Shown here: piece by piece, positions 1-11,873 of the stretch | Position numbering within the stretch: position 1 is the first letter of the stretch | Layout of the letters: each line of letters opens with the position of its first letter | Origin: a virus | Taxonomy: Duplodnaviria > Heunggongvirae > Uroviricota > Caudoviricetes | DNA length: 11,873 nucleotides | IMG/VR virus record: IMGVR_UViG_2695420792_000013 | Location: 1 to 11,873 of that record | Reading direction: 5' to 3' (one strand) | Position numbers and translations under genes: made by a program | Notes under the pieces: model-generated | The model's database searches: none | The model's input: the letters and a program-made list of their open reading frames with translations, nothing else | What the model was told of the DNA's origin: nothing

Positions 1-318
1 ATGAAAAAGATAGCTGCTATATCATTAATTAGTATTTTTATTATGTCTGGTTGTGCTGTGCATAATGATGAGACAAGTATCGGTAAATTTGGTCTTGCAT
101 ATAAAAGTAATATTCAGCGTAAACTCGATAACCAATACTACACCGAAGCCGAAGCTTCTTTAGCCAGGGGTAGAATATCTGGTGCAGAAAATATAGTAAA
201 AAATGATGCAACTCATTTCTGTGTTACTCAGGGCAAAAAAATGCAAATAGTTGAGCTGAAGACAGAAGGTGTAGGATTACATGGTGTCGCTCGTCTGACA
301 TTCAAATGTGGAGAGTGA
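1..318 (+). CDS. Putative lipoprotein, host-side flanking gene
   Basis: 105-aa ORF with an N-terminal hydrophobic signal-like segment ending in a cysteine (IFIMSGC), consistent with a lipobox. Lies outside the prophage, left of the att core. Size and position would fit yegR beside the K-12 P2 remnant, but that is recalled synteny only. Confidence 0.55.
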   Translation: MKKIAAISLISIFIMSGCAVHNDETSIGKFGLAYKSNIQRKLDNQYYTEAEASLARGRISGAENIVKNDATHFCVTQGKKMQIVELKTEGVGLHGVARLTFKCGE

Positions 319-380
319 GAATATTTTTTGGTAAGCGTCAAATATGCGCGTTCTGGCTGTGCGTAGCCGGAACCTGTGGG

Positions 381-413
381 AGCACGATGCCGATAAGTGA
401 AAGGCATCGTGCT
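381..413. repeat. Perfect 11-bp inverted repeat (AGCACGATGCC-N11-GGCATCGTGCT)
   Basis: Seen directly in the sequence. Sits in host-side DNA between the lipoprotein gene and the att core. No U-tract follows on either strand, so it is not a classic intrinsic terminator. Confidence 0.5.
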
Positions 414-477
414 ATGAAGGAGGATTCTATCGATGTGGTCAATGGAAGACGGTTACCAGAGATAGGGCTTATGCATA

Positions 478-504
478 AAAAAATAAGCCCGTGTAAGGGA
501 GATT
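478..504. other. P2-type attachment-site core (attL junction)
   Basis: AAAAAATAAGCCCGTGTAAGGGAGATT matches the 27-bp P2 att core as I recall it. It lies about 80 bp beyond the 3' end of int, as in P2 attP. Confidence 0.5.
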
Positions 505-583
505 TAGGGTGTCACCAGTAGGGGCTTTCAACGGTACAATGCGGGTTTGAGCGGCATAAATTACCACTGAAAGCCCTTAAACG

Positions 584-1597
584 TTACTCTACTGTGGACA
601 CTGTGTGGACACTCTCGGCCTCAGTACCACCTCTTAGCGGATTAAGAGAAATGGCGTCCTGAAGGTACTCTGGCGCAAAATGAGCGTAAACCATAGTTTG
701 CTCAATCCGCGTGTGACCTAGTATCCGTTGTAGCGTGATAATACTTCCTCCATTAATCATGAAATGAGTGGCAAAGCTGTGCCTTAGTGCATGTGTGGCT
801 TGCCCCATTGGCAAATCCGGTTTTATTGCTTTCATTGTTCGTCTGAAGCGAGGGTAATCAGCATCAGGGAATAAAAAACCTCGTTTGTTATCCGCGATCA
901 TTTTGGCAACAGCCTCTGAGATCGGGACGGTGCGTGGTTTGTTTGTTTTCGTTTTAACAAACGTGACGCGGTTATGGATGATATTTTCTGCTTTCAAACG
1001 AGCTGCTTCTCCCCAACGTGCTCCAGTACTCAGGCAAAGAATCGCAATCTTTTTGTTGTCGCCGTCAAGAGCAGCAAGCAGTAAGGCAATTTCTTCCTGC
1101 GTGAGATAGCCTGTGTCTGGTTTTTCCTCCTTAAGCCTTTTTGTCCCTCTGATAGGGTGCTCACCAAAGAATAACTCCGCTTCAATCAGGGCTGTAAACA
1201 TGCCGCTAATACATGTTAAATCACGATTGATACTCGAAGGTTTAATACCCTGACTTCTTCGGGTGGCGCAGTACTGGCTGATAAGCGATTTCGTAATTTG
1301 AAATGCGCATGGGTCATTCGTTATTTTTGTGAAGATTTCAATTTTTCCAAGATTAGATTTCCCATGCTCTTCGTGTTTACCCTTTAAATCCCACCAGATC
1401 TGTGTCAGCTCCGACAGACGTCGCTTGTCTGTTGGTTTTGATAGCCATTCTTTATTGTGGTGGTTGTACAACGTGTATTTCTCGAAAGCGACAGCTTCGC
1501 TTTTCTTATCAAACTTCCTACGGATGCGTTTTCCATTACGTCCAGTAGGGCGGATGTCCACTTCATATCGACCATCATCGAGTTTTTTGATTGCCAT
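584..1597 (-). CDS. int: Tyrosine site-specific integrase, P2 Int-like
   Basis: 337-aa ORF, the same length as P2 Int. Carries a tyrosine-recombinase C-terminal signature (HALRHSFATH ... LGHTRIEQTMVYAH). Sits next to the att core and is co-oriented with the repressor gene. Confidence 0.9.
   Translation of the reverse strand: MAIKKLDDGRYEVDIRPTGRNGKRIRRKFDKKSEAVAFEKYTLYNHHNKEWLSKPTDKRRLSELTQIWWDLKGKHEEHGKSNLGKIEIFTKITNDPCAFQITKSLISQYCATRRSQGIKPSSINRDLTCISGMFTALIEAELFFGEHPIRGTKRLKEEKPDTGYLTQEEIALLLAALDGDNKKIAILCLSTGARWGEAARLKAENIIHNRVTFVKTKTNKPRTVPISEAVAKMIADNKRGFLFPDADYPRFRRTMKAIKPDLPMGQATHALRHSFATHFMINGGSIITLQRILGHTRIEQTMVYAHFAPEYLQDAISLNPLRGGTEAESVHTVSTVE
593..611. promoter_or_regulatory. 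Tandem TGTGGACA direct repeats, candidate Int arm-type binding sites
   Basis: Two exact TGTGGACA copies at 593-600 and 604-611, 11 bp apart, overlapping the 3' end of int next to the att core. Confidence 0.4.
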
Positions 1598-1651
1598 CAG
1601 AAAACCCTCCGAGTGGTGTGTTTTTTTGCGACTACTAATCGCTTTTTTCGT

Positions 1652-1672
1652 GGTGGCTGAAATTTAGCCACC
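1652..1672. repeat. Inverted repeat GGTGGCT-N7-AGCCACC in the C-int intergenic region
   Basis: Seen directly. A 12-bp perfect palindrome TGAATATATTCA follows at 1691-1702. Both lie between C and int and could be an attenuator or a protein-binding site. Confidence 0.35.
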
Positions 1673-1712
1673 AATAGTAGGCACTTGTGATGAATATATT
1701 CACGATGAATTG

Positions 1713-2012
1713 TTAACCAGTCTTTTGACCGGAGTGGGGTGACGTTGTTTCGTTTTGCCCAAAGTGTGCGAGAGCGGGCGCAATTTGCCCGGACTCAGGA
1801 GCGATCTGATTGGTCATGAACCATAAAGTGTATTTGGTGAATTGTGGGGTCTGCAGGATGTTCATCATGACATCTGTTGGAGGTGTTGAACGACCACTTT
1901 CATAGTAACTCAGCGTGCCATACGGAACCCCTGTTAAATCAGCAAGTTGTTGTCTGCTCAAATACTCTGATTTTCGCATTAAGACTATCTTCTCGCTTAT
2001 CGTGTTTGACAT
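1713..2012 (-). CDS. C: Immunity repressor, P2 C-like
   Basis: 99-aa ORF, the length of P2 C. Contains an HTH-like segment (LSRQQLADLTGVPYGTLSYYE). Divergent from cox and upstream of int in the same orientation, which is P2 immunity-region synteny. Confidence 0.75.
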   Translation of the reverse strand: MSNTISEKIVLMRKSEYLSRQQLADLTGVPYGTLSYYESGRSTPPTDVMMNILQTPQFTKYTLWFMTNQIAPESGQIAPALAHFGQNETTSPHSGQKTG

Positions 2013-2126
2013 GGTGTTTAGATCTCAATAGTATTTAGTTTAGATGTAGATTGTTTAGTGCTTGGATGTGGGCACTAAAAGGCATTATAAGACATTAAAC
2101 GCAATTCATGAGGGCTAGAGGACGAC
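2013..2126. promoter_or_regulatory. Divergent promoter/operator region (Pe/Pc-like)
   Basis: Intergenic region between divergent C and cox. Contains repeated TTTAG-containing units (about 2013-2021, 2032-2046, 2052-2060) and an 8-bp inverted repeat TTTAGTGC-N10-GCACTAAA (2054-2079). Exact -10/-35 boxes not assigned. Confidence 0.5.
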
Positions 2127-2402
2127 ATGAGCAAGCAAGTAACACTCATGACTGATGCGATTCCTTATCAGGAGTTCGCAAAACTAATAGGAAAATCGAC
2201 AGGAGCGGTTCGTCGGATGATCGATAAAGGAAAGCTGCCTGTAATTGATATGACCGATCCACAATCAGCTTCAGGTCGTGCAGGTGAATATTGGGTATAC
2301 CTTCCGGCATGGAATAACGGACTAAAACTGGCTTATGAAAGCCGCCCTAAAGAGATTCGTGACGGCTGGTTGATGTGGTTAGGTCTCGGTGAACCACGTT
2401 AA
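2127..2402 (+). CDS. cox: Cox-like excisionase / directionality factor and transcriptional regulator
   Basis: 91-aa ORF, the length of P2 Cox. First gene of the rightward early operon, directly opposite C. Confidence 0.75.
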   Translation: MSKQVTLMTDAIPYQEFAKLIGKSTGAVRRMIDKGKLPVIDMTDPQSASGRAGEYWVYLPAWNNGLKLAYESRPKEIRDGWLMWLGLGEPR

Positions 2403-2412
2403 GGAGAACCGT

Positions 2413-2583
2413 ATGAATGAGCCTCGTTGTATTGCTCAGTTACTGCGTAACGAAAGCCCCAGGGCGATTGACTTCACCATCACCCATGGTAAGGGGCGTA
2501 AGGGAATCATTATCCGCACCAAAAAACAGAGTCCGTTAAAAAAGGCTCTGACCTTTCTGAAAAGCCGGAGGGTATGGAAATGA
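2413..2583 (+). CDS. Small hypothetical protein (P2 orf78 position)
   Basis: Listed ORF is 2389-2583. The start is more likely the ATG at 2413, which follows an AAGGAG Shine-Dalgarno at 2401-2406. Positional equivalent of the small ORF between cox and B. Confidence 0.45.
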   Translation: MNEPRCIAQLLRNESPRAIDFTITHGKGRKGIIIRTKKQSPLKKALTFLKSRRVWK

Positions 2584-3080
2584 CAGTGATGACGCTCAAT
2601 CTCGTTGAAAAACAGCCAGCAGCTATGCGCCGGATAATTGGTAAGCATCTTGCCGTTCCTCGCTGGCAGGATACATGTGATTATTATAATCAGATGATGG
2701 AGCGCGAACGGCTAACAGTTTGCTTTCATGCGCAGTTAAAACAGCGTCACGCAACGATGCGTTTTGAAGAAATGAACGACGTCGAACGTGAACGACTGGT
2801 ATGTGCAATTGATGAATTGCGTGGGGCATTCTCAAAACGTCGTCAGGTCGGTGCAAGTGAGTATGCATATATTAGTTTTTTAACAGTCAGTCAGCGTCGT
2901 ACTTTATTTATGCATGCCGGATTGACTGAAAAAGAATTCAACCAGCCATACTGGCGAATTAATGAAGAGTCATGTTACTGGCGTGATGCTTTATTCCGTG
3001 CATTACGTGAATTATTCAGCCTGTTTGAGTATGCACCGACAATTCTGACATCGGTAAAACCAGAGCAATATCTGCATTAA
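2574..3080 (+). CDS. B: Replication protein B-like
   Basis: 168-aa ORF (P2 B is about 166 aa as I recall) in the expected slot between cox and A. Start could be one of the first three Met codons. Confidence 0.7.
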   Translation: MEMTVMTLNLVEKQPAAMRRIIGKHLAVPRWQDTCDYYNQMMERERLTVCFHAQLKQRHATMRFEEMNDVERERLVCAIDELRGAFSKRRQVGASEYAYISFLTVSQRRTLFMHAGLTEKEFNQPYWRINEESCYWRDALFRALRELFSLFEYAPTILTSVKPEQYLH

Positions 3081-3134
3081 GTAATTAACCAGAGTTTTTA
3101 ACGCACTTAATTGTGCGGGGCTTCTTTTTGCCTG

Positions 3135-3368
3135 GAGAAAGTCATGCATACAGTTTCTGAAAATCAGTGCGGTAAATACGCATTACTGCTGCAACAGGCC
3201 AGAACCGAAGCACAGGCCGACGCAGCGACGCGCTTTTCTTCTCATCTTGACGCCATGATTCGCCACATCACAAAGGCGGAGTTATCCCGCGTGGAGATAG
3301 TCGAGCTGCTCAGTCAGGAGTCGGAAAAATTTCACAACATCGGATTGTCTCGCGGGGAGGTGCTTTGA
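3135..3368 (+). CDS. Hypothetical early protein (P2 orf80 position)
   Basis: Listed ORF starts at 3111. The ATG at 3135 is preceded by GGAGAAAGTC and is the more plausible start. The stop overlaps the next start (ATGA-type coupling). Confidence 0.5.
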
Positions 3369-3670
3369 TGTCCTGTTCTCGTTCAGTTGTTTTACTGAAC
3401 AATGCCTTAAAAATCGCCGTTATGAAAAATGGCGATTTGTCTCTTATTCAACTTGGTCTTGATAAAGAAAAACGCGAAATAACTGAATCTGTTATCGCGA
3501 TTTATCAGAGTGAATTAAACCTCCTGTCTGATGTGGTCAATTTACTTGTTAAACGCGCTGTATTTCACAAGCAAATTTCCTCCGTGGATGAACTGACGAC
3601 ATTAACGACAGAAATCGCCAGCTATTGCGCTGATGAATTTAAAAAACTGAACGACAAAAGGAACTGGTAA
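3365..3670 (+). CDS. Hypothetical early protein (P2 orf81 position)
   Basis: 101-aa ORF, tightly packed with its neighbours in the early operon. Confidence 0.55.
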
Positions 3671-3894
3671 TGCCGGACAACGTAGATTTTATTCAGGAAC
3701 AACAGGCTGAATTACTGGAGCGCCAGATTAACGCGGCAAGGGTAAAACATTGCGGTGCTTCTGCGCTGGTTTGCGAAGAGTGTGACGCGCCAATACCTGC
3801 TGCCCGTCGTGCGGCTTATCCGTCAGCCACGCGTTGTGTTTCCTGTCAGGCAGTCTTTGAAGCAAAAAACAAACATTACCGGAGAACGGCATGA
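3670..3894 (+). CDS. C4-type zinc-finger protein, TraR/DksA family (P2 orf82 position)
   Basis: 74-aa ORF with CxxC-N17-CxxC (CEECDAPIPAARRAAYPSATRCVSCQ), typical of phage TraR-like proteins. Confidence 0.7.
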   Translation: MPDNVDFIQEQQAELLERQINAARVKHCGASALVCEECDAPIPAARRAAYPSATRCVSCQAVFEAKNKHYRRTA

Positions 3895-4166
3895 GTATTC
3901 GTATTGAAATTGGCGAACGTTATGTCGTTACCAGTGACAGCTTTCAGTTTATTCTCCACGAGAAAAAGAGAGCGGAAAGCGGTAAAAACGCCGGTCAGGA
4001 ATGGCTGGCGGTGGTTGGTTATTACCCGAAATTAAGCCAGCTCGTTTCCGGCCTGATGCATCACGATATTCTGACCGGAAGCGCAAAATCTTTTGCCGAT
4101 TTAAACGTGCAGGTTGAGCAACTCAGCAGGCGTTGTTCAGAGGCTTTTGGCTCATATGGACGTTAA
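3891..4166 (+). CDS. Hypothetical early protein (P2 orf83 position)
   Basis: 91-aa ORF with start overlapping the previous stop, directly upstream of A. Confidence 0.5.
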   Translation: MSIRIEIGERYVVTSDSFQFILHEKKRAESGKNAGQEWLAVVGYYPKLSQLVSGLMHHDILTGSAKSFADLNVQVEQLSRRCSEAFGSYGR

Positions 4167-6279
4167 AGCCTCCGGGCGTTTTGTCCCTCCGTCAGCATTT
4201 GCCGCAGACACCGGTAAGACGTTTACCGGTGCTTATGCATGGAACGCGCCACGCGAGGCTGTCGGGCGCGAAAGACCCCTTACACGTGACGAGATGCGTC
4301 AGGTGCAAGGTGTTTTATCCACGATAAATCGCCTGCCTTATTTTTTGCGCTCGCTGTTTACTTCACGCTATGACTACATCCGGCGCAATAAAAGCCCGGT
4401 GCACGGGTTTTATTTCCTCACATCCACTTTTCAGCGTCGTTTATGGCCGCGTATTGAGCGTGTGAATCAGCGCCATGAAATGAACACCGACGCGTCGTTG
4501 CTGTTTTTGGCAGAGCGTGACCACTATGCACGCCTGCCGGGAATGAATGACAAGGAGCTGAAAAAGTTTGCCGCCCGTATCTCATCGCAGCTTTTCATGA
4601 TGTATGAGGAACTCTGCGATGCCTGGGTGGATGCGCATGGCGAAAAAGAATCGCTGTTTACGGATGAGGCGCAGGCTCACCTGTATGGTCATGTTGCTGG
4701 CGCTGCACGTGCTTTCAATATTTCCCCTCTCTACTGGAAAAAATACCGTAAAGGGCAGATGACCACGAGGCAGGCATATTCTGCCATTGCCCGTCTGTTT
4801 AACGATGAGTGGTGGACTCATCAGCTTAAAGGCCAGCGTATGCGTTGGCATGAGGCGTTACTGATTGCTGTCGGGGAGGTAAATAAAGACCGTTCACCTT
4901 ATGCCAGTAAACATGCTATTCGTGATGTGCGTGCGCGCCGCCAGGCAAATCTGGAATTTCTTAAATCGTGTGACCTTGAAAACAGGGAAACCGGCGAACG
5001 CATCGACCTTATCAGTAAGGTGATGGGCAGTATTTCTAATCCAGAAATTCGCCGGATGGAGCTGATGAACACCATCGCCGGAATTGAGCGTTACGCCGCC
5101 GCAGAGGGTGATGTGGGGATGTTTATCACGCTGACCGCGCCGTCAAAGTATCACCCGACACGTCAGGTCGGAAAAGGCGAAAGTAAAACCGTCCAGCTTA
5201 ATCACGGCTGGAACCATGAGGCATTTAATCCAAAGGATGCGCAGCGTTATCTCTGCCGTATCTGGAGCCTGATGCGCACGGCATTCAAGGATAATGATTT
5301 ACAGGCCTACGGTTTGCGTGTCGTTGAGCCACACCACGACGGAACGCCGCACTGGCATATGATGCTTTTTTGTAATCCACGCCAGCGTAACCAGATTATT
5401 GAAATCATGCGTCGCTATGCGCTCAAAGAGGATGGCGACGAAAGAGGAGCCGCGCGAAACCGTTTTCAGGCAAAACACCTTAACCGGGGCGGTGCTGCGG
5501 GGTATATCGCGAAATACATCTCAAAAAACATCGATGGCTATGCACTGGATGGTCAGCTCGATAACGATACCGGCAGACCGCTGAAAGACACTGCTGCGGC
5601 TGTTACCGCATGGGCGTCAACGTGGCGCATCCCACAATTTAAAACGGTTGGTCTGCCGACAATGGGGGCTTACCGTGAACTACGCAAATTGCCTCGCGGC
5701 GTCAGCATTGCTGATGAGTTTGACGAGCGCGTCGAGGCTGCACGCGCCGCCGCAGACAGTGGTGATTTTGCGTTATATATCAGCGCGCAGGGTGGGGCAA
5801 ATGTCCCGCGCGATTGTCAGACTGTCAGGGTCGCCCGTAGTCCGTCGGATGAAGTTAACGAGTACGAGGAAGAAGTCGAGAGAGTGGTCGGCATTTACGC
5901 GCCGCATCTCGGCGCGCGTCATATTCATATCACCAGAACGACGGACTGGCGCATTGTGCCGAAAGTTCCGGTCGTTGAGCCTTTGACTTTAAAAAGCGGC
6001 ATCGCCGCGCCTCGGAGTCCTGTCAATAACTGTGGAAAGCCTGCCAGCAGTGATACTTCGTTACCGGCTCCCACGCCTTCTGAACATGCCGCAGCAGTGC
6101 TTAATCTGGTAGATGACGGTGTTATCGAATGGAGTGACCCGGAGGTTGTGAGGATTCTAATGGTAGTGTTAAAAGGAGGGGAAGCATACAAAATCAACAA
6201 CGAAGACGATTATCACCGCAAAGTGCCGAACAAGTCAGCTCAGTGGCTAAAACAAAGAATAAATAGAGTGGGTAACTAA
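4114..6279 (+). CDS. A: Rolling-circle replication initiation endonuclease, P2 gpA-like
   Basis: 721-aa ORF. HUH motif HWHMML at 5350-5367. Paired catalytic tyrosines in YIAKYISK (Y codons at 5503-5505 and 5515-5517), the phiX174/P2 gpA signature. True start may be the ATG at 4156, which would minimise overlap with the upstream ORF. Confidence 0.9.
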   Translation: MSNSAGVVQRLLAHMDVKASGRFVPPSAFAADTGKTFTGAYAWNAPREAVGRERPLTRDEMRQVQGVLSTINRLPYFLRSLFTSRYDYIRRNKSPVHGFYFLTSTFQRRLWPRIERVNQRHEMNTDASLLFLAERDHYARLPGMNDKELKKFAARISSQLFMMYEELCDAWVDAHGEKESLFTDEAQAHLYGHVAGAARAFNISPLYWKKYRKGQMTTRQAYSAIARLFNDEWWTHQLKGQRMRWHEALLIAVGEVNKDRSPYASKHAIRDVRARRQANLEFLKSCDLENRETGERIDLISKVMGSISNPEIRRMELMNTIAGIERYAAAEGDVGMFITLTAPSKYHPTRQVGKGESKTVQLNHGWNHEAFNPKDAQRYLCRIWSLMRTAFKDNDLQAYGLRVVEPHHDGTPHWHMMLFCNPRQRNQIIEIMRRYALKEDGDERGAARNRFQAKHLNRGGAAGYIAKYISKNIDGYALDGQLDNDTGRPLKDTAAAVTAWASTWRIPQFKTVGLPTMGAYRELRKLPRGVSIADEFDERVEAARAAADSGDFALYISAQGGANVPRDCQTVRVARSPSDEVNEYEEEVERVVGIYAPHLGARHIHITRTTDWRIVPKVPVVEPLTLKSGIAAPRSPVNNCGKPASSDTSLPAPTPSEHAAAVLNLVDDGVIEWSDPEVVRILMVVLKGGEAYKINNEDDYHRKVPNKSAQWLKQRINRVGN

Positions 6280-6443
6280 ACTCGCTTTGTTTTAGTTTGT
6301 GAATATATGAGACTGGACGCTGAAACCTGACGAGTAGGTTTGTGAGAATGATGATCTATTTGCATTGAGATAATATGTTAAGTTATAGGCTTTCTGCGTT
6401 AGTGCACTTCCCCCCCCCAACCGTAGCAGGGGGAGGTAAAGGG

Positions 6444-7298
6444 TTAAGCAAATCTTAATATTTCTTTAGGTATGGGAGTTGCACAAGCTAATCTTCGTCT
6501 TTCTAACATTAAAGGATCCTTAGTAATTTTCAAATTATTATTGACGGATAAATGTGATTTTAAGGATGACAACCAGAGCTTAATGAACTCAAAGACATAT
6601 TTACCCTTAATGGCTCTTTCGTACGGTAATTCATTGAAGAATGAAATCAATGCTTTTACATCCTCTGAGTCTTCATTTACTTCATAATCTATTAACGTAG
6701 CATTATCCTTGATTGAGATATTTTTATACTCAATATTGATAACTGAAGATATTTTATTGTAGAATTTTGTTTTCCCGTTTGCATTATGATTTACAAATAG
6801 AGGTCGGCATAATTCTTTTGCTAACTTTTGAAATAGTTGGAAGTCGGACTCAAAATCTTTTTTGATACGCGCCAATAAATCAGACTGTGTTATATCCATT
6901 TTGAACTCGTCCTTTAAATAGCTTTTTGTAGAGGAAGAGTTAATAATATAGTTTTCAATTGAATAACATGAAAGAGTAACAATGTTATCAGAATTATGCT
7001 CAAATAGGTCAAAGTCATGATCTACAAAAAAGTAGCAATTGCTTAATATTTCTTGATCATTATGTTGAATTGCATGCTCGTATAACTCAATTATCTGTTT
7101 TTTTCCTTTCGCCACAAGGTGGCCTGCATTAGCATACTCTGGATTGTGTTTCATCCATTCATCGTATACAGGGTAATCATCAACACCTTCAAAAACAAAA
7201 ATTTTATCGAAGGATGATGTTTTAAGTAATATCTCTTGCTTTAACGGATTTCTCGAAAAAGCTTCTTTTTTCATAGTATGTAGGAGATTGTTACTCAT
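6444..7298 (-). CDS. TOPRIM-like (DUF4435-like) nuclease, AriB-like effector candidate
   Basis: 284-aa ORF. TOPRIM-style motifs: IFVFEGVDD (Glu codon at 7188-7190) and FFVDHDFD (DxD at about 7014-7022). Start ATG shares one base with the upstream ATPase stop. Strongly AT-rich coding sequence. Confidence 0.7.
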   Translation of the reverse strand: MSNNLLHTMKKEAFSRNPLKQEILLKTSSFDKIFVFEGVDDYPVYDEWMKHNPEYANAGHLVAKGKKQIIELYEHAIQHNDQEILSNCYFFVDHDFDLFEHNSDNIVTLSCYSIENYIINSSSTKSYLKDEFKMDITQSDLLARIKKDFESDFQLFQKLAKELCRPLFVNHNANGKTKFYNKISSVINIEYKNISIKDNATLIDYEVNEDSEDVKALISFFNELPYERAIKGKYVFEFIKLWLSSLKSHLSVNNNLKITKDPLMLERRRLACATPIPKEILRFA

Positions 7299-8764
7299 CA
7301 GACACTACCCTTTCGTACTTTCATAGCAGTTGCATAAGGGTCTAGCTCATTGTCAAATATGAATGGTGAATGCGTTATGGCAATTATTTGCCTAACATTT
7401 TCACCCGCATTCAAATCTGGTAATATCATCCGTTGCCACTCTATCGATAACGAAAGTTCCGGTTCATCTATTAATATTATTTTAGGGGTATTATCATTAA
7501 GATAAATCGTAGCCATTAGCGAAATTACTTGTTTCTCACCTGAAGATAAGTCATTAAGAGAGATGCGATCTCCTGTATATGTATCTTTTACGATAACTTC
7601 TAATCTTTGAGGATCAAATTTTAGAGATTTAGAATCACCTGCTGATGAAAGATATTTATCACAAACAGCAACGAATTTCTCAATTTTTGACTCTTGCTCT
7701 TTTGTTTCTTGTATAACCGAGTTTAATTGAGTTAAAAAATATTTCAAGTAAGTGATGTTTTTTATTTCATCTTTGTTATATAGCAATTTAAGCGAATCAA
7801 TTAAAGATTTCTTTTTTGATTCAGATGCTCTTTTTTCTCGCAAATTTGTACCAGTATCCTCAACTCGATTAAGGAATCTTTCCAAATCCTCTATAGAAGG
7901 TAGTGCATTTTGTTCTTTAGCTATCCGCTCATTGTTACCATATTTAATTAAATCCTCAAGCATTTTGGCACTTAAAGATCTATAGCCAAGGTTTGATGTC
8001 CTTTCAATTTCTAAAGTTAGACCTTTTAAAGCATCTTCGACATCCTTTAACCCATATGAAATGCCATCACGTTGTAGTTTCATCCCTCTTTTTCTACCAA
8101 ACATGCGAGGGTGAAGATTTTCTCTTTCTTCCCTAGGTGTCGTCTCAAAACTTTTTTCTACCCTTCGATATGTTGGTAGAAATATAACGTCTAAATCCCT
8201 AAGCGCTTCAGCAACCACTCTAAAATTATTATTTTTAGAGTAATGCATTTTTAAATTATGCTGTTCCTTATTCTTCATTTTATTAACTATGTTGTCTTTT
8301 AGTTCTCTTAGAAAATGATTTATATAATCCTTTGGGTATTTTACGGTATTATATAGGTCATTGACTAAAGCATCATCATTGAATTCATTTTGCTTCGAGT
8401 CAATTAAAGTCTTCGCAAACTTGGTAATATCACGATCATCCCAAAATGACTCATTAAGAGAAAATCTTTCATTGAGGAATGCTTTTATTTCACCAAAAGG
8501 TATTAAAGATGCTCTTTCATTTTTAATTTCAACCTCCTCATGACCAAGAATCTTTATGAATATTGATTTAAAATCAATTCTCATAAGGTTTGTAAAATCT
8601 TGCTCGAGAAGAAGTCTTATAGCATTAAGTATGGTTGTTTTTCCTGCGCCGTTCTCGGATACGAAAACTGTTGTCTTGCCTTTCATTTTCATAGTTATAT
8701 CTTTATAACCATGAACTCCTGTCATTCTAAAATATTCAATCGGGTAATTATTACGTGTAGTCAT
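7298..8764 (-). CDS. ABC-type ATPase with coiled-coil insertion, AriA-like
   Basis: 488-aa ORF. Walker A ENGAGKTT (codons at about 8633-8650). Signature-like LSSGEKQ. Walker B IILIDEPE (D-E codons at 7463-7468). H-loop ITHSP. A long K/E/L-rich middle segment suggests a coiled coil. AGGAGA Shine-Dalgarno 4 nt upstream of the ATG. AT-rich. Confidence 0.75.
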   Translation of the reverse strand: MTTRNNYPIEYFRMTGVHGYKDITMKMKGKTTVFVSENGAGKTTILNAIRLLLEQDFTNLMRIDFKSIFIKILGHEEVEIKNERASLIPFGEIKAFLNERFSLNESFWDDRDITKFAKTLIDSKQNEFNDDALVNDLYNTVKYPKDYINHFLRELKDNIVNKMKNKEQHNLKMHYSKNNNFRVVAEALRDLDVIFLPTYRRVEKSFETTPREERENLHPRMFGRKRGMKLQRDGISYGLKDVEDALKGLTLEIERTSNLGYRSLSAKMLEDLIKYGNNERIAKEQNALPSIEDLERFLNRVEDTGTNLREKRASESKKKSLIDSLKLLYNKDEIKNITYLKYFLTQLNSVIQETKEQESKIEKFVAVCDKYLSSAGDSKSLKFDPQRLEVIVKDTYTGDRISLNDLSSGEKQVISLMATIYLNDNTPKIILIDEPELSLSIEWQRMILPDLNAGENVRQIIAITHSPFIFDNELDPYATAMKVRKGSV

Positions 8765-9010
8765 TATGTCTCCTTTCGTCTACATTACTAAAATCAGTTA
8801 GTCAATTTTCTTAAAAACTAAAGTAACAGAAGCTTTCGATATATTTGAACAGCTAATTCATACAGCAAAGTCAAACTTAATTCAACTATCCATCAGGCGG
8901 TGCACGATTCGTACAGCGCAACCCACAGTTGATTCAACTCGGATTATAATAATTGCAGATATTTTTTGCGATTTCCAGTGGCTACTAGTCATTTTATTGT
9001 GATCCCTAAA

Positions 9011-9029
9011 CCACCTCCTGGGGAGGTGG
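9011..9029. repeat. Subterminal palindrome of the IS200-like element (left)
   Basis: Perfect 8-bp stem with 3-nt loop, seen directly. Confidence 0.6.
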
Positions 9030-9117
9030 TGATTGATCCTGTAAGGCTATAGCCTGAAGAATGCCCATGTCGGAATATCTCTGCTTACTCACCACAAGTA
9101 AAAGGAGACAAACTGAC

Positions 9118-9552
9118 ATGGGGTTTTACAGAAGTTCATCATATGTATATTGGCGTTGCAAATATCACATAGTCTGGACGGCAAAGTACCGTTTTAGGAT
9201 CCTGAGGGATAAATTGGGCAAGGAGCTGTACAGAACCATCTATATTCTTTGCGGAATAAAAGATTGTGAGGTTCTGGAGTTAAATGTACAGGCAGATCAT
9301 GTGCATCTTGTCGTAATAGTGCCGCCAAAAATCTCAATATCTACTCTGATGGGGCACCTGAAAGGTCGCAGTGCAATCAGACTCTACAATCGATTCCCGC
9401 ATATCAGGAAGAAGTTATGGGGAAACCATTTTTGGTCGTGGGGTTACTTTGTTGATACGGTAGGCGTGAACGAAGAAATTATCAGACGATATGCGAGGTA
9501 TCAGGAAAAGATGGAGCAAACACATGAACAGCAGATGGAGTTGCTAGAGTAG
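9118..9552 (+). CDS. tnpA: IS200/IS605-family Y1 (HUH) transposase TnpA
   Basis: Motifs CKYHIVW, HUH in HVHLVV, and catalytic Tyr context WGYFVDTVG. Listed ORF starts at 9061, but the ATG at 9118 follows an AAGGAGA Shine-Dalgarno and gives a family-typical 144 aa. A GC hairpin at 9572-9589 follows the stop. Confidence 0.8.
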   Translation: MGFYRSSSYVYWRCKYHIVWTAKYRFRILRDKLGKELYRTIYILCGIKDCEVLELNVQADHVHLVVIVPPKISISTLMGHLKGRSAIRLYNRFPHIRKKLWGNHFWSWGYFVDTVGVNEEIIRRYARYQEKMEQTHEQQMELLE

Positions 9553-9600
9553 AAAACGGAATATGACATTCGCCCCCCTTATAGGGGGCATTCTGAAAAG

Positions 9601-9619
9601 CCACCTCCTCAGGAGGTGG
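9601..9619. repeat. Subterminal palindrome of the IS200-like element (right)
   Basis: Perfect 8-bp stem with 3-nt loop, near-identical to the left copy. Confidence 0.6.
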
Positions 9620-9752
9620 TCTTTTACTTCTACTGTGTTTGATGCATGAATTTGCATTCGAGTTTTTCTGAGCGTTGCCTTGTCAGTTGTAGGTCTTGTG
9701 GGGTTGGGGTGGCCTAATGCAACTGCATTATTAGCGCCCTATGAAGCGGGCG

Positions 9753-9771
9753 GGCGAGGCGGGGAAAGCAC
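9753..9771. other. P2-type cos site (19-nt cohesive-end sequence)
   Basis: GGCGAGGCGGGGAAAGCAC matches the P2 cohesive end as I recall it. The flanking sequence resembles the P2 genome termini, and it lies just upstream of the 3' end of portal gene Q, as in P2. Confidence 0.6.
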
Positions 9772-9913
9772 TGCGCGCTGGCGGTGGTGCTGATTTTATT
9801 TTTTCAGCGTCTGAGCGCGTTGTGATGGCGTTTAGATTGTTCGCCGGGGCGTTGGTGTGTATGCGGGCTGTTTTGTGCGGTGGTGAGCGTGTGAGGGCGT
9901 GATGGCGGGGTGT

Positions 9914-9935
9914 AAAAAAGCCGCCCGCAGGCGGC
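9914..9935 (-). terminator. Intrinsic terminator downstream of Q (minus strand)
   Basis: On the minus strand: GCCGCC-TGCG-GGCGGC stem-loop followed by TTTTTT, immediately after the Q stop codon at 9941-9943. Confidence 0.6.
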
Positions 9936-9940
9936 GATGT

Positions 9941-10440
9941 TCAGCCGTTGTCAGTGTCCAGTGAGTAGTTTTTAAAGCGGATGACCTCCTGACCGAGCCA
10001 GCCGTTTATCTCGCGGATCCTGTCCTGTAACGGGATAAGCTCATTGCGGACAAAGACCTTTGCCACTTTCTCAATATCACCCAGCGACCCGACGTTCTCC
10101 GGCTTGCCGCCCATCAACTGAAAGGGGATGCGGTGCGCGTCCAGCAGGTCTGCGGCGCTGGCTTTTTTGATATTAAAAAAATCATCCTTCGTTGCCACTT
10201 CACTGAGCGGGATAATTTTAATGCCGTCGGCTTTCCCTTGTGGGGCATAGAGAAACAGGTTTTTAAAGTTGTTGCGGCCTTTCGACTTCACCATGTTTTC
10301 GCGGAGCATTTCGATATCGTTGCGATCCTGCACGGCATCGGTGACGTACATGATGTATCCGGCATGTGCGCCGTTTTCGTAATACTTGCGGCGGAACAGC
10401 GTGGCCGACTCATTCAGCCAGAGCCAAAGGTCGTATTGGT
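9941..10440 (-). pseudogene. Q: Portal protein Q-like gene, C-terminal fragment only (5'-truncated)
   Basis: Listed ORF 9941-10351 (136 aa). The frame stays open upstream to about 10456 without a plausible start. Position and orientation next to cos match P2 Q, which is about 340 aa, so most of the N-terminus is missing. 5' boundary approximate. Confidence 0.6.
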
Positions 10441-10623
10441 GGCAGACGTCCGAAACTCACCGCGAGTGAGTGGGAGCAGGTCGGACGGTTGCTGGATGCG
10501 GGGGAATCTCGTCAACGCGTGGCGCTGATTTTTGATATTGGCCTGTCCACGCTCTATAAGAAATTCCCCTCATCAGCGACAAAGAATAAATTGTGTCATC
10601 CCTTAGCCAACCGGGACAAATAG
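10414..10623 (+). pseudogene. Serine DNA invertase (Gin/Pin/Hin family), C-terminal HTH fragment
   Basis: KGRIGGRRPKLTASEWEQVGRLLDAGESRQRVALIFDIGLSTLYKKFP resembles the C-terminal DNA-binding domain of Gin/Hin-type invertases. No N-terminal catalytic domain is present. The listed ORF start at 10366 is probably fortuitous. 5' boundary approximate. Confidence 0.65.
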
Positions 10624-10682
10624 CCTGACATCTCCGGCACAACTGAAAATACCACTCACCCATTAACCACGGAGTTAAACGG

Positions 10683-11873
10683 ATGAGTGACTATCATCAC
10701 GGCGTGCAGGTGCTGGAGATTAACGACGGCCCCCGCGTCATTTCCACCGTATCCACTGCCATTGTCGGCATGGTCTGCACGGCCAGCGATGCGGATGCGG
10801 AAACCTTCCCCCTCAATAAACCTGTGCTGATTACCAATGTGCAGAGCGCAATTGCAAAGGCCGGTAAAAAAGGCACGCTGGCGGCATCGTTGCAGGCCAT
10901 CGCTGACCAGTCAAAACCGGTCACCGTTGTCGTGCGCGTGGAAGACGGCACCGGTGATGACGAGGAAACGAAACTCGCGCAGACCGTTTCCAATATCATC
11001 GGCACCACCGACGAAAACGGTCAGTACACCGGACTAAAAGCCCTGCTGGCGGCGGAGTCGGTTACCGGTGTTAAACCGCGTATTCTCGGTGTGCCGGGAC
11101 TGGACACCAAAGAGGTGGCGGTTGCACTGGCATCAGTCTGTCAGAAGCTGCGCGCTTTCGGGTATATCAGCGCATGGGGCTGTAAAACCATTTCCGAGGT
11201 GAAAGCCTACCGCCAGAATTTCAGCCAGCGAGAGCTGATGGTCATCTGGCCGGATTTCCTCGCATGGGATACGGTCGCCAGTACCACCGCCACCGCGTAT
11301 GCCACCGCCCGTGCGCTGGGTCTGCGTGCCAAAATCGACCAGGAGCAGGGCTGGCATAAAACGCTGTCCAACGTCGGGGTAAACGGTGTTACCGGCATCA
11401 GTGCCTCTGTATTCTGGGATTTGCAGGAGTCCGGCACCGATGCTGACCTGTTGAACGAGTCAGGTGTCACAACGCTGATTCGCCGTGACGGTTTCCGCTT
11501 CTGGGGTAACCGTACCTGCTCTGATGACCCGCTGTTCCTCTTTGAAAACTACACCCGCACCGCGCAGGTGCTGGCCGACACGATGGCTGAGGCGCACATG
11601 TGGGCGGTGGACAAGCCCATCACTGCAACGCTGATTCGCGACATCGTTGACGGCATCAATGCCAAATTCCGTGAGCTGAAAACAAACGGCTATATCGTGG
11701 ATGCGACCTGCTGGTTCAGCGAAGAATCCAACGATGCGGAAACCCTCAAGGCCGGAAAACTGTATATCGACTACGACTATACACCGGTGCCTCCTCTCGA
11801 AAACCTGACCCTGCGCCAGCGTATTACCGATAAATACCTGGCAAATCTGGTCACCTCGGTTAACAGCAATTAA
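10683..11873 (+). CDS. FI: Contractile tail sheath protein, P2 FI-like
   Basis: 396-aa ORF, the length of P2 FI. The N-terminus MSDYHHGVQVLEI matches my recollection of P2 FI. GGAG Shine-Dalgarno 8 nt upstream. The TAA stop coincides with the window end. Confidence 0.9.
   Translation: MSDYHHGVQVLEINDGPRVISTVSTAIVGMVCTASDADAETFPLNKPVLITNVQSAIAKAGKKGTLAASLQAIADQSKPVTVVVRVEDGTGDDEETKLAQTVSNIIGTTDENGQYTGLKALLAAESVTGVKPRILGVPGLDTKEVAVALASVCQKLRAFGYISAWGCKTISEVKAYRQNFSQRELMVIWPDFLAWDTVASTTATAYATARALGLRAKIDQEQGWHKTLSNVGVNGVTGISASVFWDLQESGTDADLLNESGVTTLIRRDGFRFWGNRTCSDDPLFLFENYTRTAQVLADTMAEAHMWAVDKPITATLIRDIVDGINAKFRELKTNGYIVDATCWFSEESNDAETLKAGKLYIDYDYTPVPPLENLTLRQRITDKYLANLVTSVNSN

Follow-up and report, generated by a model that had tools for sequence, protein, structure and literature searches.

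The stretch of DNA analysed here (the window; 11,873 nucleotides) is 100% identical to contig CYEH01000001.1 of GCA_001284685.2. Homology to P2 starts exactly at the attL core, at position 478, and the P2-like left arm that follows comprises an integration end, an immunity switch and an early operon:

1–318, + strand: yegR, the chromosomal gene flanking the P2 attachment site (annotation in B7A, GZ2408C and LR-45)
478–504: attL core, the 27-nt P2 att core (27/27, P2 24356–24382)
505–618: Cox-binding sites and Int P'-arm site of attL (0 mismatches to P2)
584–1597, − strand: int, P2 integrase (337/337 aa, 99.7% identical to P2 Int)
1713–2012, − strand: C, immunity repressor (99/99 aa, 100% identical to P2 C)
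2013–2126: Pe/Pc promoters and O1/O2 operators (0 mismatches to P2; features per AF063097)
2127–2402, + strand: cox, excision factor and Pc repressor (91/91 aa, 100% identical to P2 Cox)
2413–4166, + strand: orf78, B (2580–3080), orf80, orf81, orf82 and orf83 (full length, 97–100% identical to P2)

A P2-type att core is present with a tyrosine integrase gene adjoining it. The Cox and Int P'-arm sites were located through the annotation of the P2 region. The window carries attL only; the source contig stops 27 bp past FI, and what follows of the right arm, including attR, lies beyond it. An earlier note held that integration functions were kept, and this is so for the attL core and int, both as in P2, with attR beyond the contig end. 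A tRNA scan of the window found none, ruling out a tRNA-targeting island, and an Rfam scan of the window at gathering thresholds gave no match. The divergent C/cox transcriptional switch is also present, with its operator spacer as in P2, and from the identity of the repressor and its operators to those of P2 we infer P2-type immunity function. The note's further claim that this switch and B were kept is borne out, with C and Cox at 100% and B at 99.4% identity to P2.

Replication gene, defence cargo and cos

The early operon leads into the replication gene, followed by a defence cargo, an insertion sequence and cos:

4156–6279, + strand: A', rolling-circle initiator with a replaced C terminus (707 aa; gpA residues 1–673 matched at 97%)
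5984–6040, + strand: ori, with the gpA nick site at ∼6014 (mapped from P2 29892)
6444–7298, − strand: AriB-like DUF4435 protein, PARIS-like effector (PADLOC AriB 4.5e-18; Pfam DUF4435 53.6 bits)
7298–8764, − strand: AriA-like ATPase (PADLOC AriA 2.8e-31; Pfam AAA_15 64.1 and AAA_21 62.0 bits)
8986–9632, + strand: IS200/IS605-family element (tnpA 9118–9552; Pfam Y1_Tnp 1.6e-37)
9642–9658: TGCATG-N3-TTGCAT motif, candidate packaging-signal element (−110 from cos, as in P2 and P4)
9704–9771, + strand: conserved cos left flank and 19-nt cohesive-end sequence (exact 19-nt match; flank homology)

Gene A, described before as retained, is so only in part. Its Pfam Phage_GPA domain (133–462) is complete, but the last 88 aa of gpA, which are conserved among 83 isolated phage records, are swapped for 34 unrelated aa. 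PGAP labels the identical A' gene of the B7A prophage (NZ_CP035812) a pseudogene. The origin does lie within A, as had been expected: the P2 ori nick position maps to 6014, inside A', and the sequence around it is identical to P2 from about −30 to +25.

The cargo occupies the A-to-cos hotspot and comprises two full-length genes, equal in length to those of intact relatives. The best PADLOC matches of the pair are AriA and AriB. Against PDB sequences, the AriA-like ATPase best matches AriA (8ux9/8v45), distantly, and the AriB-like protein has no match. The PARIS detection rule of Rousset et al. (2022) asks for adjacent AAA_15/AAA_21 ATPase and DUF4435 genes, with thresholds quoted as 32/27/27 (PMC9122126). 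The two genes are adjacent and their AAA_15, AAA_21 and DUF4435 scores are all higher than these values, so the pair falls under the rule.

Between the PARIS-like cargo and cos sits an element that has the features of the IS200/IS605 family, namely a Y1 (HUH) TnpA and subterminal hairpins (visible in the sequence at ∼9010–9036 and ∼9598–9626), without terminal inverted repeats. Its ends were defined by the extent of other E. coli copies, which are known in chromosomes and plasmids, and its right end at 9629–9632 lies ∼121–124 bp ahead of cos. The 19-nt cos sequence, GGCGAGGCGGGGAAAGCAC, is exact at 9753–9771 (0/200 shuffles matched) and adjoins the 3' part of the portal gene Q. Homology of the flank to isolated P2-like phages begins at 9704–9719, ∼35–50 bp upstream of cos. 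The TGCATG-N3-TTGCAT motif stands at an equal distance from cos in P2, P4 and the window despite unrelated intervening sequence, and we regard it as a candidate packaging signal. On the minimal cos defined by Ziermann and Calendar (1990), a 55-bp stretch conserved between P2 and P4 is stated at second hand (PMC9594776). The IS ends upstream of all the cos-flank elements that P2 and P4 have in common with the window, which rules out disruption of cos by the insertion. Checked against P2, the proposal of an intact cos holds up, with the 19 nt exact and the flank elements shared by P2 and P4 all present. As a separate observation, the gpA variant without the conserved C terminus is apparently carried by transmissible phages, and the IS200 insertion ∼120 bp from cos is apparently found in the same phages.

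Loss of the late genes

The remnant was previously taken to span 478–9771, and this extent has to be revised, as P2-derived sequence runs on past cos into a portal fragment, the C-terminal fragment of an invertase and an intact FI:

9947–10421, − strand: Q', portal fragment (codons 186–344; residues 186–343 100% identical to P2 Q)
10417–10421: deletion junction, GCCAG microhomology (both B7A parental sequences carry GCCAG)
10422–10622, + strand: C-terminal fragment of a serine DNA invertase, HTH_7 (Pfam HTH_7 4.5e-14)
10683–11873, + strand: FI, intact tail sheath gene (396/396 aa, 98.2% identical to P2 FI; pF region upstream)

P2 head, terminase, lysis, baseplate and fibre proteins have no match in the window, the only late matches being Q' and FI; P, O, N, M, L, X, Y, K, R, S, V, W, J, I, H and G are all absent from it. 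This agrees with the earlier statement that capsid genes are lacking, Q' being what is left of the portal. Since Q' and FI alone among P2 late proteins find a match, the locus is very probably a defective P2-like (Peduovirus) E. coli prophage at the yegR-side P2 attachment site, and one that has decayed recently.

Window and B7A prophage align collinearly, at 99.7% identity over positions 1–10421 (10.4 kb, with A', the PARIS-like pair, IS200 and cos inside it) and 99.4% from 10417 onward, with 14,346 bp missing between. The invertase fragment corresponds to the C-terminal ∼67 aa of the recombinase in B7A, with one residue different. The parent would thus have been a full-length phage of the B7A type, with a PARIS-like pair in the A-to-cos hotspot, IS200 beside it and a gpA with a replaced C terminus. 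A single illegitimate recombination at the 5-bp GCCAG probably fused codon 186 of the portal gene with the tail-fibre invertase gene at about codon 131. The ∼14.3 kb removed held the 5' portion of Q, the genes P, O, N, M and L, the lysis genes, R and S, the baseplate and fibre genes and most of the invertase. What was left would be a resident immunity-and-defence island, in which C would repress the early operon and exclude phages of P2 immunity, and the PARIS-like pair would be expressed independently. We infer that the deletion is recent; attL, int, cox, B, ori and cos would be intact for this reason, preserved with no selection for a satellite lifestyle. Two other routes to the junction were rejected. 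IS-mediated deletion is ruled out by the position of the IS, ∼790 bp from the junction, and by its unchanged state in intact relatives. Deletion catalysed by the invertase is ruled out by breakpoints that lie within coding sequence and off the crossover sites, with only GCCAG in common.

Distribution and alternative readings

A 35-mer, CATTCAGCCAGAGCCAAAGGTCGTATTGGTGGCAG, can serve as a search tag for the deletion derivative. The deletion junction occurs in 0 of 5,426 complete E. coli genomes, k-mer scans of GTDB representative genomes, IMG/VR and JGI metagenomes gave no match to it, and an exact-protein look-up of the chimeric 85-aa ORF that spans it returned no record; draft genomes were sampled solely by such look-ups, so its absence elsewhere is weak evidence. 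It was found in one draft assembly only, and these searches gave no sign that the element itself has spread. The parental arrangement is more widespread. Exact A' occurs in 33 index blocks, and 24 contigs were read; among the 8 places listed, five have full-length portal and head genes, two stop before the Q region and one, the source contig, carries the deletion. The A'-PARIS-IS-cos module diverges by ≤0.2% among hosts that are 1–2.6% apart in the flanking chromosome, and it is also found inside prophages with other int/immunity modules. Otherwise complete prophages with this module appear to have moved recently between hosts; their carriage of it suggests that A' and the associated cos work in a live phage, and both are probably functional on this ground. 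In B7A, the right end of the homologous prophage lies at pflB, part of another att site. Other P2 remnants exist, and their deletion partners differ. Among them, L011, L015, L016 and L018 keep int-C-cox-B-A, hotspot cargo, cos and Q' and have lost the head genes, and the ogr'-Q' junction of L016 is present in 0/5,426 complete genomes. The differing deletion partners, considered together with the rarity of the L016 junction, point to sporadic decay.

Selection by the host offers a different account of the same gene content, in which the PARIS-like pair and C are kept for their benefit, loss of the lethal late genes is favoured, and left arm, cargo and cos are together what selection has retained. 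Several independent remnants, the four named above, share this retention, each with another deletion partner, and the undiminished length of the cargo genes also fits a domesticated defence island. However, these remnants were retrieved through the Q' ORF itself, so their shared pattern is largely a matter of ascertainment, and each junction tested is rare. Moreover, int, cox, B and A' are intact although they bring the host no benefit, which argues for recency rather than selection. We consider host-driven domestication possible but doubtful. That the Q'-invertase' join is a chimeric contig from a prophage that is really complete is scarcely credible: the assembly is a draft and its contig breaks off just beyond FI, but a shared stretch of 5 bp is much too short for an assembler to be misled by it, the junction contig is listed under two samples in the index, and complete genomes, LR-45 among them, commonly show real deletions of like kind.

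The earlier note proposed a helper-dependent mobilisable element, which would excise by its own Int/Cox, replicate from ori by A'/B, be packaged by the terminase of a helper via cos, and so spread the PARIS-like cargo. Several observations speak for it. The intact attL, int, cox, B, ori and cos are exactly the set of functions needed, a point that counts against decay; the cos flank, with the motifs shared by P2 and P4, is untouched by the IS; and the near-identical A'-PARIS-IS-cos module recurs across diverged hosts and with varied int/immunity modules. Plasmids with only the cos of P2/P4 are packaged and transduced by P2 helpers (PMC9594776, PMC2231350, PMC9942202), and defective O157 prophages are mobilised by co-resident phages (PMC2669165). 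With a right arm as in P2, the element would measure ∼16.9 kb, half the P2 genome, so that two copies in a dimer would fill a P2 head; the contig also breaks where FII starts, a hint of a second P2-like element in the genome and a possible helper, and both points again weigh against decay. On the other side stand the single assembly with the junction and the lack of a P4-kind derepression or capsid-size gene. The repressor and operators are identical to those of P2, so the element should stay repressed and exclude homoimmune helpers. A heteroimmune helper would leave cox, B and A repressed. The gpA protein acts in cis, and here it is without its conserved C terminus. Finally, attR lies past the contig end, and a right end at pflB, as in B7A, would block excision. 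A functional mobilisable element is, on balance, improbable. What survives of the proposal is packaging: with cos and its flanks intact, helper-dependent packaging of an excised circle is plausible, because cos-only plasmids are packaged by P2, whereas the solitary junction, the truncated A and the missing P4-type genes tell against the remainder. As cos alone suffices, a heteroimmune P2-like helper could package such a circle, though this would be incidental and would happen at low frequency. The sequence gives no indication of an evolved satellite.

A bolder form of the same idea sees a nascent P2-derived satellite, a half-genome mini-P2 of ∼17 kb with its own Int/Cox and A'/B that would be cos-packaged by a co-resident or heteroimmune helper, perhaps as a dimer, and would carry the PARIS-like system from strain to strain with no P4-type piracy genes; on a wider view, recurrent remnants made up of left arm, cargo and cos, such as the ∼10.8-kb L016, could form an unrecognised class of P2-derived satellites. 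We think this very improbable. A prophage caught early in decay is a simpler reading than a mobilisable element. As seen, the locus gives a clean and datable instance of how P2 prophage decay begins, with the defence hotspot and the immunity module outlasting the virion genes. If the element were mobilised, one deletion could be enough to make a satellite out of a helper phage, and defence genes could be carried along in it.

Comparison with known systems

The element and P4 have in common the 19-nt cos, the conserved left flank and the motif at −110, and P4 likewise has no capsid genes and a defence hotspot adjoining cos (PMC9122126). In contrast to P4, the element lacks homologues of int, alpha, epsilon, delta, sid, psu and cI, tblastn of all P4 proteins against the window giving nothing better than E=0.16. 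It also carries the rolling-circle replication module of P2, without helper derepression or transactivation and without capsid-size redirection. With the 19-nt cos and its flank as in P4, the element is compatible with P2 terminase in this respect; membership of the P4-like satellites is rejected for want of any P4 gene homologue by tblastn.

P2/P4 cosmids provide a parallel in that a circle with cos is sufficient for P2 terminase, with off-size cosmid DNA packaged less efficiently (PMC9594776, PMC2231350, PMC9942202, PMC6893505). Unlike these multicopy plasmids, the element is a single integrated, repressed copy that would need to be excised first. In O157 Sakai, structurally defective prophages are excised, packaged and transferred via co-resident phages (PMC2669165). 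That work was experimental and concerned mostly lambdoid, SOS-inducible prophages, whereas P2-type immunity is not SOS-inducible.

Other close counterparts are P2 prophages and the yegR/yegQ remnants, such as ogrK of K-12, which share the att core, integrase, C/cox, B/A, cos and FI with the element at 97–100% identity. The chromosomal site is the same, and for K-12-like strains RefSeq records a P2 remnant at it. Relative to P2, the element is without 14.3 kb of late genes, has a replaced gpA C terminus and carries the PARIS-like pair and IS200 in the hotspot instead of orf91/tin/old. The B7A prophage and its relatives in GN4143 and GZ2408C still have Q, P, O, N, M and L, together with genes for lysis, baseplate and fibres, which the element has lost. 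Compared with the K-12 or LR-45 remnants, in turn, the element is far less decayed.

Layout of the locus relative to P2

The locus is a P2 prophage that carries defence genes and has recently decayed. A BLAST comparison with P2 yields four collinear blocks; together with the chromosomal yegR flank, they follow the order of a P2 prophage from attL onwards, interrupted by one large internal gap.

Features of the locus (window coordinates; blocks from BLAST against P2)
1–318: yegR, chromosomal gene, left flank
478–504: att core, 27 nt; no mismatches to P2, nor in the following 114 bp
478–6153: block 1, P2 24356–30031, 98.3%
4156–6279: A ORF (A'), 707 aa; matches gpA residues 1–673, then 34 unrelated residues
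Downstream of A', minus strand: DUF4435 protein, 284 aa; best PADLOC match AriB
Downstream of A', minus strand: AAA_15/AAA_21 ATPase, 488 aa; best PADLOC match AriA
~8986–9632: IS200-family element (Y1_Tnp), extent judged from other E. coli copies
9642–9658: TGCATG-N3-TTGCAT motif, at −110 to the cohesive-end sequence (−111 in P2 and P4)
9724–9771: block 2, final 48 nt before the P2 right end
9753–9771: cos, 19 nt, exact match
9753–10421: block 3, P2 1–667, cos and 3' part of Q
10603–11873: block 4, P2 17572–18842, pF and FI

Int, C, Cox, Orf78, B and Orf80-83 are all full length with 97–100% identity to P2, the Pe/Pc operator spacer has no mismatches, and the 114 bp after the att core are annotated in the P2 record as Cox sites and an Int P'-arm site. 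The ori nick position maps to window 6014, within a P2-identical stretch. The parts that the earlier note listed as retained are therefore largely right: the att core, int, C/cox switch and B stand. Gene A does not stand as an intact part, since its Phage_GPA domain is complete (133–462) but the C-terminal 88 residues, near-identical in P2, Wphi and vB_YpM_50, are replaced. The element also runs on into a portal gene fragment (Q'), an invertase fragment and FI, with attR beyond the contig end.

The cargo lies between A and cos, a known P2 defence hotspot (PMC9122126). The ATPase and DUF4435 pair score high enough in Pfam for the PARIS detection rule given by Rousset et al., and the solved AriA is only a distant relative of the pair. 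To the left of cos, homology to isolated P2-like phages begins 35–50 bp upstream; a secondary account describes a 55-bp cos region as common to P2 and P4 (PMC9594776). The TGCATG-N3-TTGCAT motif, a candidate that may be a terminase recognition element, also occurs at −110/−111 in L011 and L018 (other remnants) and in L012 and L017 (otherwise full-length prophages), and the sequence from motif to cos is non-homologous between carriers. Another TGCA-rich motif lies ~35 bp before cos. The IS ends ~10 bp upstream of the TGCATG-N3-TTGCAT motif, so that the intact cos and packaging signals proposed earlier bear no IS damage.

Origin of the deletion

Closest to the window is a full-length prophage in E. 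coli B7A, with 99.7% identity over window 1–10421 and 99.4% from 10417 on. In B7A, 14,346 bp separate the two breakpoints, each of which has GCCAG; this, together with the collinearity, indicates that the window descends from such a phage via one microhomology-mediated deletion. This event joined Q codon 186 to the fibre invertase gene near its codon 131, leaving an HTH_7 fragment (Pfam) of the latter. As the earlier note had it, the capsid genes are missing: the stretch running from the 5' part of Q into the invertase gene has been lost, and FI is intact. The IS200 element can be ruled out as the cause, because it is ~790 bp from the junction and also present in intact relatives. Just 12 of the 33 differences from B7A fall within the 9.9 kb of prophage, whereas 21 are in the 486-bp chromosomal flank (window 1–486; yegR and attB side). 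Among those few prophage differences, about a dozen in all, is a poly-C tract (window 6404–6413) that exceeds its B7A counterpart by 2 nt; it lies between the stop of A' and the end of the ariB-like gene.

Portal codon W186 is affected repeatedly (window 10417–10421; ~9932 in L013; ~9932–9934 in L012 and L017). The deletion endpoint in L013, an independent pfl-site remnant, is 1 bp from that of the window, and this remnant too is joined to the invertase gene, at another position; in both L012 and L017, the codon is changed from TGG to TAG. Chance, bias in the search or a fragile site could account for these changes.

Gene A and the full-length parent

A total of 83 isolated phage records contain the 88-aa gpA tail (coverage ≥80%); none of the isolated phage records searched contains the A' variant. 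PGAP labels the identical gene A of B7A a pseudogene, and does the same for its homologues in GN4143 and GZ2408C. The A'-PARIS-IS200-cos module is nevertheless found in three otherwise complete prophages; the GN4143 copy sits in a prophage with another integrase and att site (at pflA), and the GZ2408C copy in one with other C/cox alleles and fibre module. Among contigs carrying exact A' (L021–L028), divergence from the window is 0.11–0.2% over the 9.9 kb of prophage, except in L028, which is truncated within the cargo region, while the adjacent chromosome (gat to yegS) diverges by 1–2.6%. A near-identical prophage in diverged chromosomes indicates that the same phage recently entered diverged hosts. 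The most economical explanation is a full-length parent that is still transmissible or was so until recently; homologous recombination may instead have brought about the transfer. Taken as a whole, these sequence comparisons indirectly suggest that A' and this cos are functional and that, despite the pseudogene label, the gpA tail is dispensable for phage spread.

Helper packaging and related remnants

The window is 100% identical to contig CYEH01000001.1 of GCA_001284685.2 (exact-protein look-up), which runs only 27 bp past FI and breaks off at the FII start codon, so that attR and the rest of the right arm, from FII to ogr, fall outside it. A break at a highly conserved gene suggests that the genome contains more than one copy of what follows, which would fit a second P2-like element. 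The B7A prophage (NZ_CP035812, 2975168–3007000) runs from yegR on the left to pflB-focA on the right, where its ogrK end adjoins a site at which a different P2-like phage is integrated in GN4143; this implies a chromosomal inversion between two P2-like prophages. If the right end here is also at pflB, attL and the right junction would be mismatched and excision would fail.

P2 biology poses obstacles to mobilisation by a helper. P2 immunity is not SOS-inducible, C and operators identical to those of P2 would exclude homoimmune helpers and would keep cox, B and A off in a heteroimmune infection, and gpA is cis-acting. Comparison with P4 proteins found no P4-like derepression, transactivation or size-determination genes in the window. 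If the unseen right arm resembles that of P2, a total length of ~16.9 kb would result, half that of the P2 genome and suited to dimer packaging. P2 packages and transduces cosmids carrying only a P2/P4 cos, with size-dependent efficiency (PMC9594776, PMC2231350, PMC9942202), its head can be filled at low efficiency by three P4 genomes (PMC6893505), and co-resident phages can mobilise defective prophages (PMC2669165). Given these precedents, the proposal of a helper-dependent mobilisable element is neither new nor implausible as a capacity; as a lifestyle it is unsupported, the junction being private to one assembly.

That junction occurs in 0 of 5,426 complete E. coli genomes, and its k-mers are unmatched in GTDB representative genomes, IMG/VR and JGI metagenomes. 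Exact A' is present in 33 index blocks; from 24 contigs read, eight places were shown, of which five have a full-length portal with head genes, two end before the Q region, and only the source contig has the deletion. Other remnants, found by look-up of the Q' ORF, retain left arm, cargo and cos without head genes, and their deletion partners vary (upstream of FII, H, W, FI or ogr); since they were ascertained by Q' itself, the common pattern is largely search bias. At the yegR/yegQ site as well, E. coli LR-45 carries a heavily decayed remnant (10233–15201) with another portal-invertase join, an IS3 insertion and tail-sheath and ogr fragments; it is a later stage on the same decay path. L016 (GCA_019840065.1, ~9700–20470) is a ~10.8-kb mini-P2 between yegQ and attL, with int, C, cox, B, full-length A, a three-gene cargo, cos, Q' and ogr, and no structural genes. 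L020 shares its ogr'-Q' join, with other cargo and without early genes; this join, the one further junction tested, is likewise found in 0 of the 5,426 genomes. The pattern fits many private decay events rather than a spreading element. In size, L016 is close to P4.
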